Positions 13,976 through 19,605 of a stretch of DNA of 37,170 nt are shown here, piece by piece. Numbering within the stretch: position 1 is the stretch's first letter; every line of letters begins with the position of its first letter. The notes beneath the pieces are model-generated. The model ran no database searches and was not told where the DNA came from. It worked only from the letters and a program-made list of their open reading frames with translations. Source of the stretch: Pseudomonadota bacterium (lineage in GTDB: Bacteria; Bdellovibrionota; FAC87; UBA2466); assembly GCA_043718025.1 (NCBI GenBank), contig JAYSWN010000060.1, positions 1-37,170 of the forward strand, in the 5' to 3' direction. Position numbers and translations under genes: made by a program.

Positions 13976-14635
13976 ATGGCATTAACTCGAGAACAGATTG
14001 CTCAGCGCATTGCGCTTGAATTAAAAGACGGGCACTACGTTAACTTAGGCATCGGCATTCCTACGCTGGTAGCGAATTATATTCCGAAGGGAATTACGGT
14101 GGTGCTACAGAGTGAAAATGGGTTGCTCGGGGTAGGGCCGTATCCGAAGGAGTCGGAAGTTGACGCCGACTACATCAACGCTGGCAAAGAGACCGTTACC
14201 ACGCTGGCGGGCTCATCCATATTCTCGAGCGCCGACTCTTTCGCCATGATCCGCGGCGGCCATGTTGATCTCACAGTAATGGGCGCGATGGAAGTGGATG
14301 AAAGTGGCAGTATCGCCAACTGGATCATTCCAGGAAAGATGGTTAAGGGAATGGGCGGCGCGATGGATCTGGTTGCTTCTGGCAGTTACTTGATTGTGGC
14401 CATGCAGCACGTTTCTAAAAACGGCGAGAGCAAAATCCTGCCCAAATGCCAACTGCCGTTAACCGGCGTGGGCGTAGTGAAAAAAATTGTAACCGAGCTT
14501 GCGGTAATCGACGTAACTCCGGCGGGGCTGGTGCTGCGTGAACGGGCTCCTGGGGTTACGGTTGAAGAGATAATAACTGCTACCGCCGCTAAATTAACGA
14601 TCCCGGTTAACGTTCCTGAAATTCGCTTTCAATAA
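13976..14635 (+). CDS. scoB: 3-oxoacid CoA-transferase subunit B
   Basis: VNLGIGIPT, catalytic [23 protein letters not shown]. Confidence 0.95.
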
Positions 14636-14658
14636 ACTCACCTATCTTCGGAGCGGCG

Positions 14659-14979
14659 ATGAAACTCAAAGAGTCAGATGTCGTAGAAGAGTTTTTAAGG
14701 GTGGGCGGCCCCGGTGGACAAAACCGAAACAAACGAGAAACCGGCGTGCGCTTAACCCATCTGCCGACCAGTCTCGTGGCTACGGCCACCGAACGGCGAA
14801 TGCAGGGGCAGAACCGAGCCCTGGCCTGGGAACGGCTTGAAGAAAAACTCAGAAAACTATTTGAGAAAAAGAAGCGACGAATTAAGACCAAAGTCTCACG
14901 CGGGGCCAAAGAGAGCCGCCTACGAGAAAAATCTCACCGTAAAAATGTGAAGCAGGACCGCCGAGGATCCGGCGACTAG
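14659..14979 (+). CDS. arfB: ArfB-like ribosome rescue peptidyl-tRNA hydrolase
   Basis: GGPGGQNRNKRETGVRLTH, Q.QNR..A..RL, basic tail RRIKTKVSRGAKESRLREKSHRK. Confidence 0.8.
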   Translation: MKLKESDVVEEFLRVGGPGGQNRNKRETGVRLTHLPTSLVATATERRMQGQNRALAWERLEEKLRKLFEKKKRRIKTKVSRGAKESRLREKSHRKNVKQDRRGSGD

Positions 14980-15449
14980 GGTTTGGCTAAGAGCTTTTCC
15001 ATCTGCAGAATGTGTTCAATCCGGTAAAGCAGAACCCGTTCTTCAATGCCGTCTGAAGGCAACGAAGTCCATCCGGTATAGAAATCGTTAAATTTCTCAA
15101 GTTCCTTAATGATGCGAACTCGGGTCAAGGCGGAGCGATCGTCGCCGGAGAGCTTGGCAAAGTTTAAGCGTACGGCATAGCGGAAGCGCTCGGGCAGTTC
15201 TAGCGGTTCTGGATGCGTAAACATCAAATCGTTGTAAGGGCCGTTGACGATTTCAGACTGAATTTTCCCCGCATCTTTATTGCTCAGTTTTAGAGGGTAA
15301 TCGTTTAGCGCTTTTAATGCGGCAACCCAAACCTCATCAAAACTGCCTGGATAAATCCTGGTGTAATAGGGCTCTGCCCGCGGCACTTGCGAGGCACACC
15401 CCGCCATTAAAAAAGTGAATAGAACGGCCGAGAGCAGAGCGGTTTTCAT
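14976..15449 (-). CDS. Lipoprotein, possibly BamC/NlpB-like fold
   Basis: MKTALL...FLMAGC lipobox; Y..SFDEVW.AALKAL...SNKDAGKIQSE pattern. Confidence 0.65.
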   Translation of the reverse strand: MKTALLSAVLFTFLMAGCASQVPRAEPYYTRIYPGSFDEVWVAALKALNDYPLKLSNKDAGKIQSEIVNGPYNDLMFTHPEPLELPERFRYAVRLNFAKLSGDDRSALTRVRIIKELEKFNDFYTGWTSLPSDGIEERVLLYRIEHILQMEKLLAKP

Positions 15450-15743
15450 TGGTTTGCCTATTATTTCTAAAGTTGGCCGCCGCGGCAACTGCTCAAAAAC
15501 CTAAAAGGCTTTAACCGCGAAATCCCCCCTGAATCCCCCATCAAAAACCCAACTAAAACGATCAGTTTACGCGATGCGATTGCAACCTCATCAGACGACT
15601 TAAAAACGATGAAAAAAAGCCAAAAGCAGACGCGGCGCATGCTTCCGTTTCATGAAGGGGTAACCCACCCCCCCCCTAAACAGTTTGCCAGAAATGGAAA
15701 ATAAGAAAAACGAGAGAGAAAAAGAGAGCCCAAAATGCCTTTT

Positions 15744-15771
15744 ATTAGTTATAATTTTAGTTATACCGAAT
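15744..15771. other. dif-like tyrosine recombinase site (11-6-11)
   Basis: ATTAGTTATAA-TTTTAG-TTATACCGAAT; arms are 9/11 inverted (13/15 including the T4/A4 flanks) with the Xer-type ATAA-N6-TTAT core; directly upstream of a tyrosine recombinase gene. Confidence 0.6.
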
Positions 15772-15828
15772 AAAAATCGGCAATGAACGACTAGTACGGC
15801 AGCACAGCGAAAGCATCGGGGTTTTGGC

Positions 15829-17079
15829 ATGGAGAGGGCGCAAAGGTTCTTCTTTAAAGGGTTGGGCATCGAGAATTTAGTCTTTCGCGTAGCGTTGTAT
15901 TTGACGCGATGGTTAGAGAAGAATTCGTTTCGAAAATTCGACCTTTTGCGACACGAAGGTTTAAAAAGGGGGGGTAGTGAGGTAGTGGCCCCCCTTTTAA
16001 CTTTGCAACCTGAGTCATTTAAAAAAGAAAGCCTGGAAACGCCTTATAGTAAAGGCTCTTCAGCCGACGTGCCGAATCAGTCGTTTGCCGCGTTCCGTCA
16101 AACTCAAAAGAAGTTTTTATTGCCCGGTTGGGCCGAAGAGATTCAACCCTTTTTAGCCAATCAGTTGAGTCGTCACACCCGCGTTGCGTACGAAGCAGAC
16201 CTGCGTCAGTTTTTTCACTTCTTAGAAGGCAAAATACCGGTCGAAAGTCTGGATCTCTTGCGGCCAGAACACGTTATTTTGTTTCGTAAGTATTTGGAGG
16301 AGGGGCGTTTGCACGGTGGTCGGCCTTTGGAGAAGGCCACGATCAATCGTAAGCTCGCCGTGGTAAAGAGCTTCTTAAATTGGTTGTGCGCCAATGATGT
16401 TTTAGAGAAAAATCCGGCCCGCTTGGTGAAGGGCTTTCCGCAGAGCCAAGAGTCTGACCTTAAAGGGTTGTCTGACGAAGAGGCCGCTAAGATTCTTCGC
16501 CTGCCGGATGCCAACAAGGCGTCGGGGGCTCTCCATCTGGCCATTCTGCACGTGCTGTTATATCTGGGTTTGCGCAAGGGCGAGCTGATTAGTCTAAAAA
16601 TGGGAGACTTAGATGAGGAGAGGGGGGTGCCAGTGCTGCGGGTACGGGGAAAAGGGCACAAAGTCCGTATTCTTCCGCTCACCGCAAAAGTGCGAGAGGC
16701 GCTCGAGCACTATTTTTATGCTTGCCGCAGGGATCGCAGCGCCAAAGAAGAGCCGCTGTTTATTCCCACTAGAAACCCCCGCACAAAAACCCTTTTAAAG
16801 AGCTTAAATCCCCACGCCATTACCTATTTGGTGGTGCGCTACGCCCGCAAGGCCGGCGTGCTCAAAAATATTTCGCCGCACTCATGTCGCGCCACCTGCA
16901 TCTCCAATGCGTTGGATAAAAAAGCAACGCATCGCGCGGTGCAGAGCCTGGCGGGCTGGTCAACTCCACTGATGATTCAACGTTACGATAAGCGTCGCGA
17001 AGATCTGAAGCATTCGGCGGCCTTTATTATTGATTATGAAATTGCTGCCGATGCCCCGCCGGAAACGGTCACGGGCTAA
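15829..17079 (+). CDS. Tyrosine recombinase/integrase (Xer-like); true start probably downstream (GTG 15985 or 16069)
   Basis: Core-binding domain HTRVAYEADLRQF...ATINRKLAVVKSFLNWL; catalytic R (GLRKGEL), K (GKGHK), HxxR (HSCR), W (LAGW), Y (QRYD). Confidence 0.92.
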   Translation: MERAQRFFFKGLGIENLVFRVALYLTRWLEKNSFRKFDLLRHEGLKRGGSEVVAPLLTLQPESFKKESLETPYSKGSSADVPNQSFAAFRQTQKKFLLPGWAEEIQPFLANQLSRHTRVAYEADLRQFFHFLEGKIPVESLDLLRPEHVILFRKYLEEGRLHGGRPLEKATINRKLAVVKSFLNWLCANDVLEKNPARLVKGFPQSQESDLKGLSDEEAAKILRLPDANKASGALHLAILHVLLYLGLRKGELISLKMGDLDEERGVPVLRVRGKGHKVRILPLTAKVREALEHYFYACRRDRSAKEEPLFIPTRNPRTKTLLKSLNPHAITYLVVRYARKAGVLKNISPHSCRATCISNALDKKATHRAVQSLAGWSTPLMIQRYDKRREDLKHSAAFIIDYEIAADAPPETVTG

Positions 17080-17153
17080 GGGCCAAACTAATTTTAGAGG
17101 TGGCCCAAAATATTTTACTGCGCGAATACGTCGGTATATCGGATAATAATCAG

Positions 17154-17822
17154 ATGCATAATCCTAATCCTGCCGAGTCTATTCAAGAACGTGCCCGCGC
17201 CATGGCTAAAGCCAAGGCCTCGGGTGAAACTGTGGTTGCTTCGACCATGGACGGTTCTAAGGTTGAAGTGAATCCAGAAAAATGCTGGTTTTGCACCGAG
17301 GCCGACGCCAAGAATGTTGAGTCTCATTTCAAAATACCGATGTACCGCGGAAAATTGGTAGGTCAGGTAAAGAATGAAAAAGGGGTAATGGTCGACCAGT
17401 ATGAATGGAACGCCATAAAATTTCCGGTGCCCCGCTGCAAAGATTGCGAAGGCACCCACCACAGCATGCCTTGGGTGCGCAGCGGCCCTACTTTCGCGGG
17501 CTTCTTGGCTTCTGCCGTCGGCATGTTCTGGGTGTTAAAAGACCACAATGTAAACAAACTGTTGGAAGGCATTTTTAATGGCAAAAATACCGTGGATCTC
17601 ACGCCCATTCTAGAAATGATCACCTTCTGCGTATGCGGCATGTTTTTTTGCATGGCCTTCACGAGTTATCTCGTTACCAAAATTCAGACCGCGGTTCCTG
17701 GCGAACTCTACGCCCGCAACTACCCGGTGCTGCAAAAGCTGATTTCAGATGGCTGGCATTTGGGCAAAAGCCCGGCCTCCACGGCCTCTGCCGCCGCTGA
17801 AGTTACCCGCAAAGTTGCCTAA
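17154..17822 (+). CDS. Hypothetical membrane protein with two CxxC motifs
   Basis: CWFC and CKDC followed by two hydrophobic segments; start uncertain (17100 or 17154). Confidence 0.7.
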   Translation: MHNPNPAESIQERARAMAKAKASGETVVASTMDGSKVEVNPEKCWFCTEADAKNVESHFKIPMYRGKLVGQVKNEKGVMVDQYEWNAIKFPVPRCKDCEGTHHSMPWVRSGPTFAGFLASAVGMFWVLKDHNVNKLLEGIFNGKNTVDLTPILEMITFCVCGMFFCMAFTSYLVTKIQTAVPGELYARNYPVLQKLISDGWHLGKSPASTASAAAEVTRKVA

Positions 17823-18008
17823 GAGAGTGTCTCAAAACCCTATGTAGAGCCGCGTTCCTGTCATTGCCGAGCCTGCGTAGCAGGCGCGGCAACCGTTGGC
17901 TTGCTTGGTTTTGTCGACGTCCCTCTTCACTCATAGTGAAAGGGTTGCTTCAGCCGCACTGCGTGCGCCTTCGCAACGACGGCGAAATACCACTTTTGAG
18001 ACACCCTC
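17823..18008. mobile_element. 186-bp MITE with 15-bp TIRs, TAA target duplication and internal REP-like hairpins
   Basis: TAA|GAGAGTGTCTCAAAA ... TTTTGAGACACCCTC|TAA (14/15 match); no transposase. Confidence 0.8.
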
Positions 18009-18084
18009 TAAGCAAAAAAAAATTAGGCACGCCTCCGTACGACCCTCCAATTACCAAAAGGGGGGGGAGTGCTAGAATGCACAT

Positions 18085-19605
18085 ATGAACCCACCTAAGC
18101 TTTTTGCTTGGTCACTGCTACTTTGGTTTTTTTTTTCGGCGACCGCTTTCGGCAGATTCGATAATTGCAAATTAGAAACTTTGGTAGATCGGCCCACCGC
18201 TACCCCTGACGAAACCGCATTAATTCAAGAGGGGGCTAAGGTTTTTAAGGTGATAGACGATATGATGGCGGATGGAGTTGCGGCCCTTCCGGCGGGAGGC
18301 AAAGCCCTTAGCATTCCCTCGGCCCACCGCCAGGCTATCATCCGACGATTTGTCGCGGCGTACCTGGATGGCGCCAAAAATAATCCCAAAGACTTTATCG
18401 CCGGTGGAAATGTTGGCCACATGCGGGATCACTTAGAGCTATTCGTACGGCATAAAAAATATCTCGCGCAACAGGGCTTCGATGAAATGTCTTTTCTCTT
18501 AGCGGTGGTGGCTCACGACACGGGCAAGGCTCTCCTCGATAGCGCTATCAATTCGTACTTGGTAGATAAAACAAATGCCCAGATCCCGCGCACGGCATTT
18601 CTCATGCAGCGCGTGCTAAGCCATGAATACCACTCAATCGCTAATGTTCCTAAAATCGTTACAGAGTCGCTAAAGAGAATGGGATTGGATCCGGACACTC
18701 CGGAGGGAAAAGCGCTCGTCGTCAAGTATTCGGGCGAGATCATCGAAGCCATTCGCCTGCACAATGGCGTTGGCATCGCTGGCAACCTAAAGAGTCAGTA
18801 CCCGAGCCTAAACGAGACAGAGCTCGAGCAAGTGCGCAAGGCTTGGTGGGCGAGCTTCAACAAAGCCTTTGCCGAGACCACGGGTTCTCGTTTGGCGCAG
18901 TATGGAGAAAGTGAAGACGCTCCAGTCACGCCGATTGGCCAAGTCTTAAACCTGTTTGATCGCATTACGCTCACCACCGCTAAAGCACCCTGGAAGTTGG
19001 GCACCCAGAACGCCGGATCGATGCCCTTTGGCACTTTTTGGTTGAAAAGTACGTTTGTGGATTCGGCCATCGATAATGACGTTCTTGTGTTAGCTCAGGG
19101 TGAAAAAGTGGTGAGGGGGTTCAGCGGAAAGAGTGAGTCTGAATGGGCCGCGCTGCCCTTCAGCGAGCGACGCAAATTGATCGAAGGAAATCCACTGGTC
19201 GTTGATGGACTTGCTTTAAATACAAACCTTCGTGCCCTGGGCCAAAAAATAATCATCATGAACCAGAAGGAAGTGTTGCAAAGGAAATTCGCGGTGCCCG
19301 AAAACGAAATGCCCATTTCTGCAGCCATGAAATTGAAAGAGGAGGCGGGACCGGCGGCTCAGTACCTATACTGGATAGCTCCCGCCGAATCAGGCACAAA
19401 TTACCGAGTGATTGCCAAAGAAGGGAGTTCGCCCCGCCTAGAAAAGTGGACCGGTCAGCGATGGCAAGAGACGCCGGCTACGCCCGGGCTCAACGAAAGG
19501 ACTCGCAAACCCGGTGACTTTATTGAAAATGACTTTAGAACCCCCACCCACTTATTGATGGCCGTAGTCCGCAGCGCCGGCGCCTGGAAGGGCACCCCGC
19601 CGTAA
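18085..19605 (+). CDS. Exported protein with HD-domain-like motifs
   Basis: Signal peptide ending ATAFG; GHMRDH, VVAHDTGK, SHEYHS, IRLHNG, LFDRI. Confidence 0.7.
   Translation: MNPPKLFAWSLLLWFFFSATAFGRFDNCKLETLVDRPTATPDETALIQEGAKVFKVIDDMMADGVAALPAGGKALSIPSAHRQAIIRRFVAAYLDGAKNNPKDFIAGGNVGHMRDHLELFVRHKKYLAQQGFDEMSFLLAVVAHDTGKALLDSAINSYLVDKTNAQIPRTAFLMQRVLSHEYHSIANVPKIVTESLKRMGLDPDTPEGKALVVKYSGEIIEAIRLHNGVGIAGNLKSQYPSLNETELEQVRKAWWASFNKAFAETTGSRLAQYGESEDAPVTPIGQVLNLFDRITLTTAKAPWKLGTQNAGSMPFGTFWLKSTFVDSAIDNDVLVLAQGEKVVRGFSGKSESEWAALPFSERRKLIEGNPLVVDGLALNTNLRALGQKIIIMNQKEVLQRKFAVPENEMPISAAMKLKEEAGPAAQYLYWIAPAESGTNYRVIAKEGSSPRLEKWTGQRWQETPATPGLNERTRKPGDFIENDFRTPTHLLMAVVRSAGAWKGTPP

Follow-up and report, generated by a model that had tools for sequence, protein, structure and literature searches.

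The stretch of DNA analysed here (the window, 37,170 nt) belongs to a draft assembly of 4.14 Mb (G000; contigs C1, C66, C156 etc.) from the Bdellovibrionota. The family of this genome is denoted f1, further f-numbers stand for other families of the phylum, and the other G-numbers designate the genomes that were compared with G000. The window harbors a gene for a tyrosine recombinase, denoted r1, which is preceded by a palindromic, recombination-like site. These features and their immediate surroundings are compiled in Table 1.

Table 1. Features of the r1 locus, with positions in the window.
Feature	Position	Strand	Remarks
Divergent lipoprotein-like gene, conserved left neighbour	14976..15488	-	homolog within 3 kb in 26/33 ortholog loci; candidate part of the system at most
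13-6-13 core recombination-like site	15742..15773	.	TTATTAGTTATAA TTTTAG TTATACCGAATAA; unique in the genome, kept at ortholog loci
TATAAT, putative -10 box of the r1 promoter	15750..15755	+	overlaps the left arm and the first spacer base; invariant in 27/27
Conserved flanking motif GGCAATGAACG, candidate accessory binding site	15779..15789	+	consensus G(G/C)(C/T)AATAAACG; repeats part of the outer right arm in direct orientation
Tyrosine recombinase r1	15829..17079	+	416 aa; SAM-like core-binding and catalytic domain; C-terminal YDKRR
Predicted N-terminal amphipathic helix, residues 14-31, followed by a variable linker	15868..15921	+	aligned in orthologs; hydrophobic moment 0.60 in r1

All residues of the R-K-HxxR-W-Y signature, which an earlier note on this DNA had ascribed to the recombinase, are present in r1 (R249, K275, H351, R354, W377, and Y386), and a comparison of 12 diverse r1 members shows no variation in R, K, H, R, and Y. 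With this catalytic set and the fold of core-binding and catalytic domains, the protein belongs to the tyrosine recombinase superfamily. Its predicted model (pLDDT 84.6) matches the folds of XerA, XerD, XerH, an integron integrase, and Cre, with no family favoured. The start codon lies 57 bp after the right arm of the site (taken as 15744-15771) and is supported by the conservation of the N-terminal helix in orthologs; the helix could form a membrane or partner contact and may localise r1. Model scores and quick trees show that r1 is not an ortholog of XerC or XerD: it reaches 137 and 128 bits on the respective models vs. 304 and 306 bits for the true XerC (C1) and XerD (C66) of G000, which themselves score just under the curated cut-offs. 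Neither is it a member of the XerS (56.8 bits on the NCBIfam model, cut-off 267) or XerA (101 bits, cut-off 220) families, and XerH matches it only weakly (E 6e-4; 17-19% identity in the fold match), so that r1 falls outside the XerH family, too. The C-terminus is devoid of RQ-QQ, described as the FtsK-contact motif of the XerD C-terminus (PMC1914069), and the XerD of G000 ends with LRLMQQKFHPRR. XerS is FtsK-dependent without this motif, so that its lack in r1 is compatible with either mode.

The 11-6-11 dif-like site reported upstream of the gene, ATTAGTTATAA-TTTTAG-TTATACCGAAT, is found there as written. The near-symmetry claimed for its arms amounts to 9/11 positions and extends to 13/15 over 15740-15775. 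It is also correct that the site has no second copy, as none occurs within 7 mismatches across the 4.14-Mb assembly; among the 38 ATAA-N6-TTAT cores of this assembly, it is the only one with an arm symmetry of at least 11/13. The family consensus reads TTTATTAGTTATAA-TTTTAG-TTATCACTAATAA, the last element being the right arm. The TTTTAG spacer is identical in 26 of the 27 site-bearing family loci, and the TTATGT XerD arm typical of the canonical dif sites of the family is absent. A comparison of contigs over 14000-19000 revealed no joint at the site and a gap at ~15495-15668, neither of which is informative. Symmetric 13-bp arms would suit a single protein binding both halves, and the asymmetric, near-invariant spacer would suit a directional crossover region.

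The conserved flanking motif begins 5-6 nt past the right arm in 27/27 loci, and the start codon is found 16-87 nt from the core; the motif keeps register with the core and not with the start codon. The best self-match is at a 13-bp shift (5.9/9; other shifts 1.1-4.1). TnpI is described to use flanking direct repeats to impose resolution (PMC2847244), and by analogy with these accessory repeats the flanking motif could impose resolution over fusion. The left arm in f1 contains TATAA, where distant lineages and plasmids have GATAA at the same place. This difference creates the invariant TATAAT, and bound r1 therefore probably covers its own promoter, which would amount to autoregulation. A simple promoter scan did not call TATAAT as a -10 box at r1, and no good -35 element is present. 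The alternative that the palindrome represents back-to-back -10 boxes proved insufficient, though the left arm does hold the invariant TATAAT. A role as operator only is insufficient as well, because the site is situated 1-3.5 kb downstream of the gene in three loci of other families.

Orthologs of r1 (66-88% identity) are present in single copy in 30 of the 33 other family genomes and in three of the four sister-family genomes, giving 33 ortholog loci in an order set of 38 genomes with G000; one of the 30 family orthologs is split over two contigs, and the three genomes without an ortholog are 73-77% complete. Conservation of the motif beside orthologs, which had been named as a check, was confirmed: the site lies directly upstream in 27 of the 30 family loci, two others having no upstream DNA in the contig and one (G004) carrying no site. 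In a whole-genome pattern search, 34/38 order genomes have exactly one 13-6-13 site, and wherever contigs permit the check it is found directly upstream of the gene. The same pattern was found in none of 23 other genomes of the phylum, and the reversed-pattern control returned zero. A second copy of the site, as an integrated element would leave, is present in 0/38 order genomes, and no broken r1 copies occur in the aligned ortholog loci. Identities to G000 for r1/XerC/XerD are 74/59/52% in G007, 68/57/49% in G009, 69/57/49% in G013, 70/56/49% in G030, and 66/56/49% in G034. Judged by these values, purifying selection on r1 is stronger than on XerC and XerD in the same five genomes. The module of r1 and its site is vertically inherited.

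The context of r1 is chromosomal, with housekeeping genes and order-wide synteny. A Pfam scan of 32 window ORFs yielded no phage or conjugation genes, in line with the earlier note. The site had furthermore been regarded as a transition from housekeeping to accessory DNA, and a boundary between conserved and variable DNA is indeed real. To the left, the lipoprotein-like gene (26/33 loci) and arfB (21/33) are conserved beside r1 orthologs; to the right, homologs of three ORFs downstream of r1 accompany the orthologs in 0/33 loci. The window also contains a palindrome-rich repeat of ~200 bp (17811-18020; MITE/REP-like), of which other contigs contain over 40 copies; as many of these copies lie at contig ends, the repeat probably fragments the assembly.

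The recombinase had been considered a lone one. G000, in contrast, encodes three PF00589 proteins in total, among them XerC and XerD, and the check for a canonical xerC/xerD/dif set elsewhere in the genome found all of it. The FtsK gamma domain is present, the KOPS GGGNAGGG are polarised 239:65 on skew-oriented contigs, and a canonical dif, ACGTCGCATAA-GTACCA-TTATGTATCAT, is located on C156 (10755-10782). At this dif, a GC skew of +0.044 gives way to -0.087, and the KOPS, although few, point towards it from both sides (3:0, then 0:1). Two matches at XerC/D level were obtained in 29/33 family genomes and 3/4 other order genomes. Canonical dif was found in 11/33 family genomes with a tight pattern and in 21/33 with a looser one, counts that are approximate owing to 10 control matches of the looser pattern. 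A third pattern gave 0/5 in genomes of other families, with no canonical dif located in f4, f15, f20, and f22. Two canonical dif-like sites on the same contig, separated by 3-27 kb, were observed in G013:C31, G020:C26, G026:C4, G027:C3, G019:C63, and G015:C94, which suggests Xer-integrated islands or a duplicated dif.

An inversion of GC skew at the r1 site, as anticipated by the earlier note, was not seen: the skew is +0.056 before and +0.005 after the site, with the raw maximum at ~26 kb in the window. Skewed octamers do not flip there either, as KOPS are positive on both sides (3:2 before, 3:1 after). In G000, the r1 site and the canonical dif are on separate contigs. In four relatives with both on one contig (G007, G030, G013, and G015), dif follows the site on its downstream side at distances of 34.5, 56.5, 117.8, and 124.7 kb (in ascending order); these genomes are kin and do not represent four independent placements. 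Pooled over the four, the KOPS ratio is 41:10 ahead of the site, 48:13 in the interval up to dif, and 2:18 past dif. They flip at the canonical dif in 4/4 relatives and not at the r1 site, and r1 is co-oriented with them on one replichore before dif. As KOPS keep pointing past the r1 site to dif, FtsK would pass the site en route to dif. The flip in GC skew coincides with dif in G013 and is close to it in G030; the skew of G015 gives no clear picture. It is clearly positive past the r1 site in G009 (for 52 kb), G013, and G030; in G006 and G000, it falls beyond the site. G007 is the only genome with a skew peak at the r1 site (maximum 3.5 kb from it and 128 kb from dif); in G007:C5, 326-455 kb, this maximum and the KOPS flip at dif are ~125 kb apart. 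The r1 site is thus located in the terminus zone but off the replichore junction.

Beyond the order, a profile built from 12 r1 members of the searched families gave strong matches in 87 of 150 sampled phylum genomes. These comprise all sampled genomes of f1, f2, f4, f10, f22, f23, f9, f19, and f20, together with 8/11 of f14 and 3/8 of f15. No strong ortholog was obtained by profile in f8 (0/15), f13 (0/12), f11 (0/10), f6 (0/6), and f3 (0/3), and its lack in f8 and f13 implies that r1 is not generally needed in the phylum. Whole-length scores within the phylum split into at least 286 vs. at most 239 bits, a gap that is not seen globally, where scores fall smoothly among the 50% representatives. 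The closest representatives of r1 have 396-551 aa with long N-terminal extensions. Many proteins of 600-750 aa with two tandem recombinase units are also found among the 50% representatives (P0283, P0311, P0321, P0327, and others), possibly fused two-subunit recombinases.

A well-supported subclade outside f1 shows a GATAA-N6-TTATC palindrome near the gene in 10 of 13 loci, upstream in f4, f20, and f22 (spacer GTT(A/T)AA) and 1-3.5 kb downstream in f14 and f15; within the fetched stretch, the cognate palindrome is absent in 3/13. Its arms vary between lineages, yet remain symmetric at 8-13 of 13 positions. In distant loci, symmetric sites (at least 10/13) occur in 13 of 28, some of them belonging to a second recombinase of f10, vs. 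0-2 in eight shuffles. One genome each of f4, f14, f15, f20, and f22 contains one or two further integrase-family genes at XerC/D-level score, and in G137 a canonical dif is found 3.4 kb further on from the r1-type site.

The situation in f10, whose proteins are named Halobacteriovorax, Bacteriovorax, and Bacteriovoracaceae in the source records, is particular. An XerD match at 1e-30 was obtained in 0/3 genomes and a PF00589 match above 111 bits in 0/5 near-complete genomes. The r1 enzyme is encoded about half-way round two near-complete chromosomes; its own site is clear in one genome only (G126) and was not found in most of 15 f10 loci. A second, conserved terminus recombinase (26% identity to r1; L143:16280-17338, minus strand, L225, L246-L248) lies 3-50 kb from the r1 gene in 8/8 checked cases and has its own upstream palindrome, which is 13/13 symmetric in G126 and whose left arm in G045 we take to be loxP-like. 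It is a candidate for the primary single-Xer system in genomes without an XerC/D-level match. The idea that f10 uses r1 alone on the loxP-like site was discarded, as this site is directly upstream of the different recombinase in 8/8 cases and the exact pattern occurs in 3/41 f10 genomes. Further symmetric ATAA-N6-TTAT sites (11/13 and 10/13) were noticed in the terminus plateau of G045 (C1:1715531 and 1589934). In every genome checked, r1 comes on top of another candidate system.

The nearest named relatives of r1 are plasmid tyrosine recombinases of Pseudomonas, Rhodoferax, Paraburkholderia, and Nitrosospira (35-37% identity; e.g. WP_076072603.1 and WP_213539898.1). A GATAA-N6-TTATC site of 11-12/13 symmetry lies 9-281 bp upstream in 4/8 plasmid loci, one further locus has a site of 8/13, and none was found in the fetched stretch at 3/8. 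These enzymes share with r1 the C-terminal YD(R/H/K)R and, in the four loci, a 13-6-13 palindrome just upstream; they differ in being plasmid-borne, ~320 aa in length, and without the N-terminal helix. A literature search found no experimental description of them. Quick trees unite the Bdellovibrionota r1 clade and the plasmid enzymes to the exclusion of XerC/D (SH-aLRT 95-96). An AU test weakly rejects joining the clade to XerC/D (p=0.028); the trees are unrooted with few outgroups, and the tested grouping was picked after the first tree had been seen. Phage origin was dismissed, the phage matches being weaker (at most 32.5% identity), as was kinship to the NAH7/Tn4655 integrase (best E 0.9 vs. 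the only integrase annotated on NAH7, presumably TnpI). The single-copy chromosomal pattern suggests a transfer from plasmid to chromosome.

In layout, r1 resembles XerS/difSL, and in ancestry plasmid resolvase modules. As expected for a plasmid multimer-resolution module, its closest relatives are plasmid-borne and have the same upstream site (4/8 loci), but r1 itself is not on a plasmid or mobile element. XerS/difSL of Streptococcus and Lactococcus resembles it in consisting of one recombinase with a near-symmetric site immediately upstream, in the terminus region, and without RQ-QQ (PMC1914069; PMC5357621). XerS, however, replaces XerCD and acts at the replichore junction, whereas r1 coexists with XerCD/dif off the KOPS junction; there is no family-level homology, and the core of the r1 site is ATAA-N6-TTAT. 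XerH/difH (Campylobacterota) and XerL/dif (Legionellales) are one-enzyme chromosomal systems as well but stand in for XerCD; for XerL, a link to a plasmid in Coxiella is described (10.1101/2021.09.12.459815). With the single-recombinase systems (XerS, XerH, XerL, XerA), r1 thus shares the near-symmetric, single-copy, linked site, but it is not the only Xer of its genome and its site is not at the replichore junction. TnpI/IRS of Tn4430 (PMC2847244) and Cre/loxP likewise combine one enzyme with a symmetric core and make 6-bp staggered cuts, as is predicted for r1; both are mobile-element resolvases, and Cre is a fold-level match to r1 only (14-17% identity). XerCD/dif has the same 28-bp 11-6-11 geometry and ATAA-N6-TTAT core (Bdellovibrio dif, PMC2731167), whereas the r1 site has symmetric arms, no TTATGT arm, and is no point of KOPS convergence. 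The literature located on Bdellovibrionota Xer/dif and plasmid resolvases describes no second conserved terminus recombinase, although tables such as that of PMC3025954 could list sites.

We consider it an even call that r1 is a domesticated plasmid resolvase and forms, beside XerCD/dif, a second system of terminus recombination that works with one enzyme and serves unlinking or the resolution of multimers. The recombinase would act on two sister copies of its site near the terminus, by which chromosome multimers would be unlinked or resolved. Four identical subunits would bind two sites, cleave with a 6-bp stagger on either side of the asymmetric TTTTAG spacer, and swap strands via a Holliday junction. 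As KOPS show no convergence at the r1 site, directionality might come from the flanking motif, the N-terminal helix, or both, rather than from activation of the FtsK-XerD type, and binding over the -10 box would repress the r1 promoter. Speculatively, a step of this kind that does not depend on the septum would be important where a lineage copies several chromosomes within one filament before it divides; according to a review, multi-chromosome Bdellovibrio filaments should be more troubled by dimers (PMC11318664). Against this reading, XerCD/dif covers the main dimer-resolution job, so a second system looks redundant, and E. coli dif is described to work only at the replichore junction (PMC1914069), while the r1 site lies tens of kb off.

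More tentatively, and with the odds against it, the Bdellovibrionota may have domesticated a plasmid resolvase once, early, as a second terminus recombinase independent of FtsK and septum, steered by the accessory motif and a membrane helix and kept beside a primary system (in most families XerCD/dif, in Bacteriovoracaceae another recombinase with its own site). If true, this would amount to two-tier chromosome resolution, and the enzymes and sites would constitute a natural series of Cre-like pairs whose arms co-vary. The one-enzyme Xer systems known so far take the place of XerCD; r1 appears to be kept in addition, under stronger constraint, across much of the phylum. An active r1 would provide a chromosome-unlinking step beyond the coverage of XerCD/FtsK. 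It would moreover exemplify how a plasmid resolvase can be domesticated while retaining an intact site; for XerS and XerH, such a route has been proposed (10.1101/542381). The r1-type enzyme/site pairs with different arms are directly testable in E. coli.

It is rather unlikely that the palindrome mainly serves as an autoregulatory operator, with the real substrates of r1 elsewhere, e.g. incoming plasmids or islands with GATAA-N6-TTATC that are integrated, resolved, or excised. The overlap with the invariant TATAAT, the near-identical site cores on plasmids, and the variable DNA downstream of r1 would agree with such a role, but f14/f15 carry the site on the downstream side of the gene, the spacer is as nearly invariant as a crossover region would be, and none of the 38 genomes holds the second copy that an integrated element would leave. 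Hardly better placed is the notion of a terminus anchor or DNA-break machine, in which r1 on a single site would tether the terminus to the membrane or division site via its helix, with cleavage for local unlinking or fork stalling. The conserved amphipathic helix, the long N-terminal extensions of the closest representatives, the proximity of the skew maximum to the site in G007, and the skew drop after it in G006 and G000 speak for this; a single site makes a poor anchor, however, membrane binding is predicted only, and the skew stays positive past the site in three other genomes.

That r1 is a relic, without a current role, of a plasmid or island that integrated and became fixed, or its site one used by XerC/XerD themselves, appears improbable: plasmid ancestry and the ATAA-N6-TTAT core common to dif speak for it, whereas order-wide retention, identity above that of XerC/XerD, the intact state of the aligned copies, and the lack of a TTATGT XerD arm speak against it. 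From the earlier proposal of a single-Xer dimer-resolution system like XerS/difSL, the near-symmetric site wedded to its recombinase and the shared layout (PMC1914069), terminus-proximal and highly conserved, stand, but a replacement of XerCD/dif is largely refuted, and least probable of all, by the presence of XerC, XerD, FtsK-gamma, and canonical dif and the KOPS flip at the latter.

A link of r1 to the loss of Topo IV was considered and dropped, since no correlation emerged and one GyrA/ParC-type gene is usual both with and without r1. Most families of the phylum have a single GyrA/ParC-type gene at E<=1e-40 and no evident Topo IV, and f10 and f3 have two. In two f8 genomes, a catalytic-domain-only tyrosine recombinase in a 178-aa frame is encoded about half-way round the complete chromosomes (G124:C1:1875899 and G109:C1:2094333).
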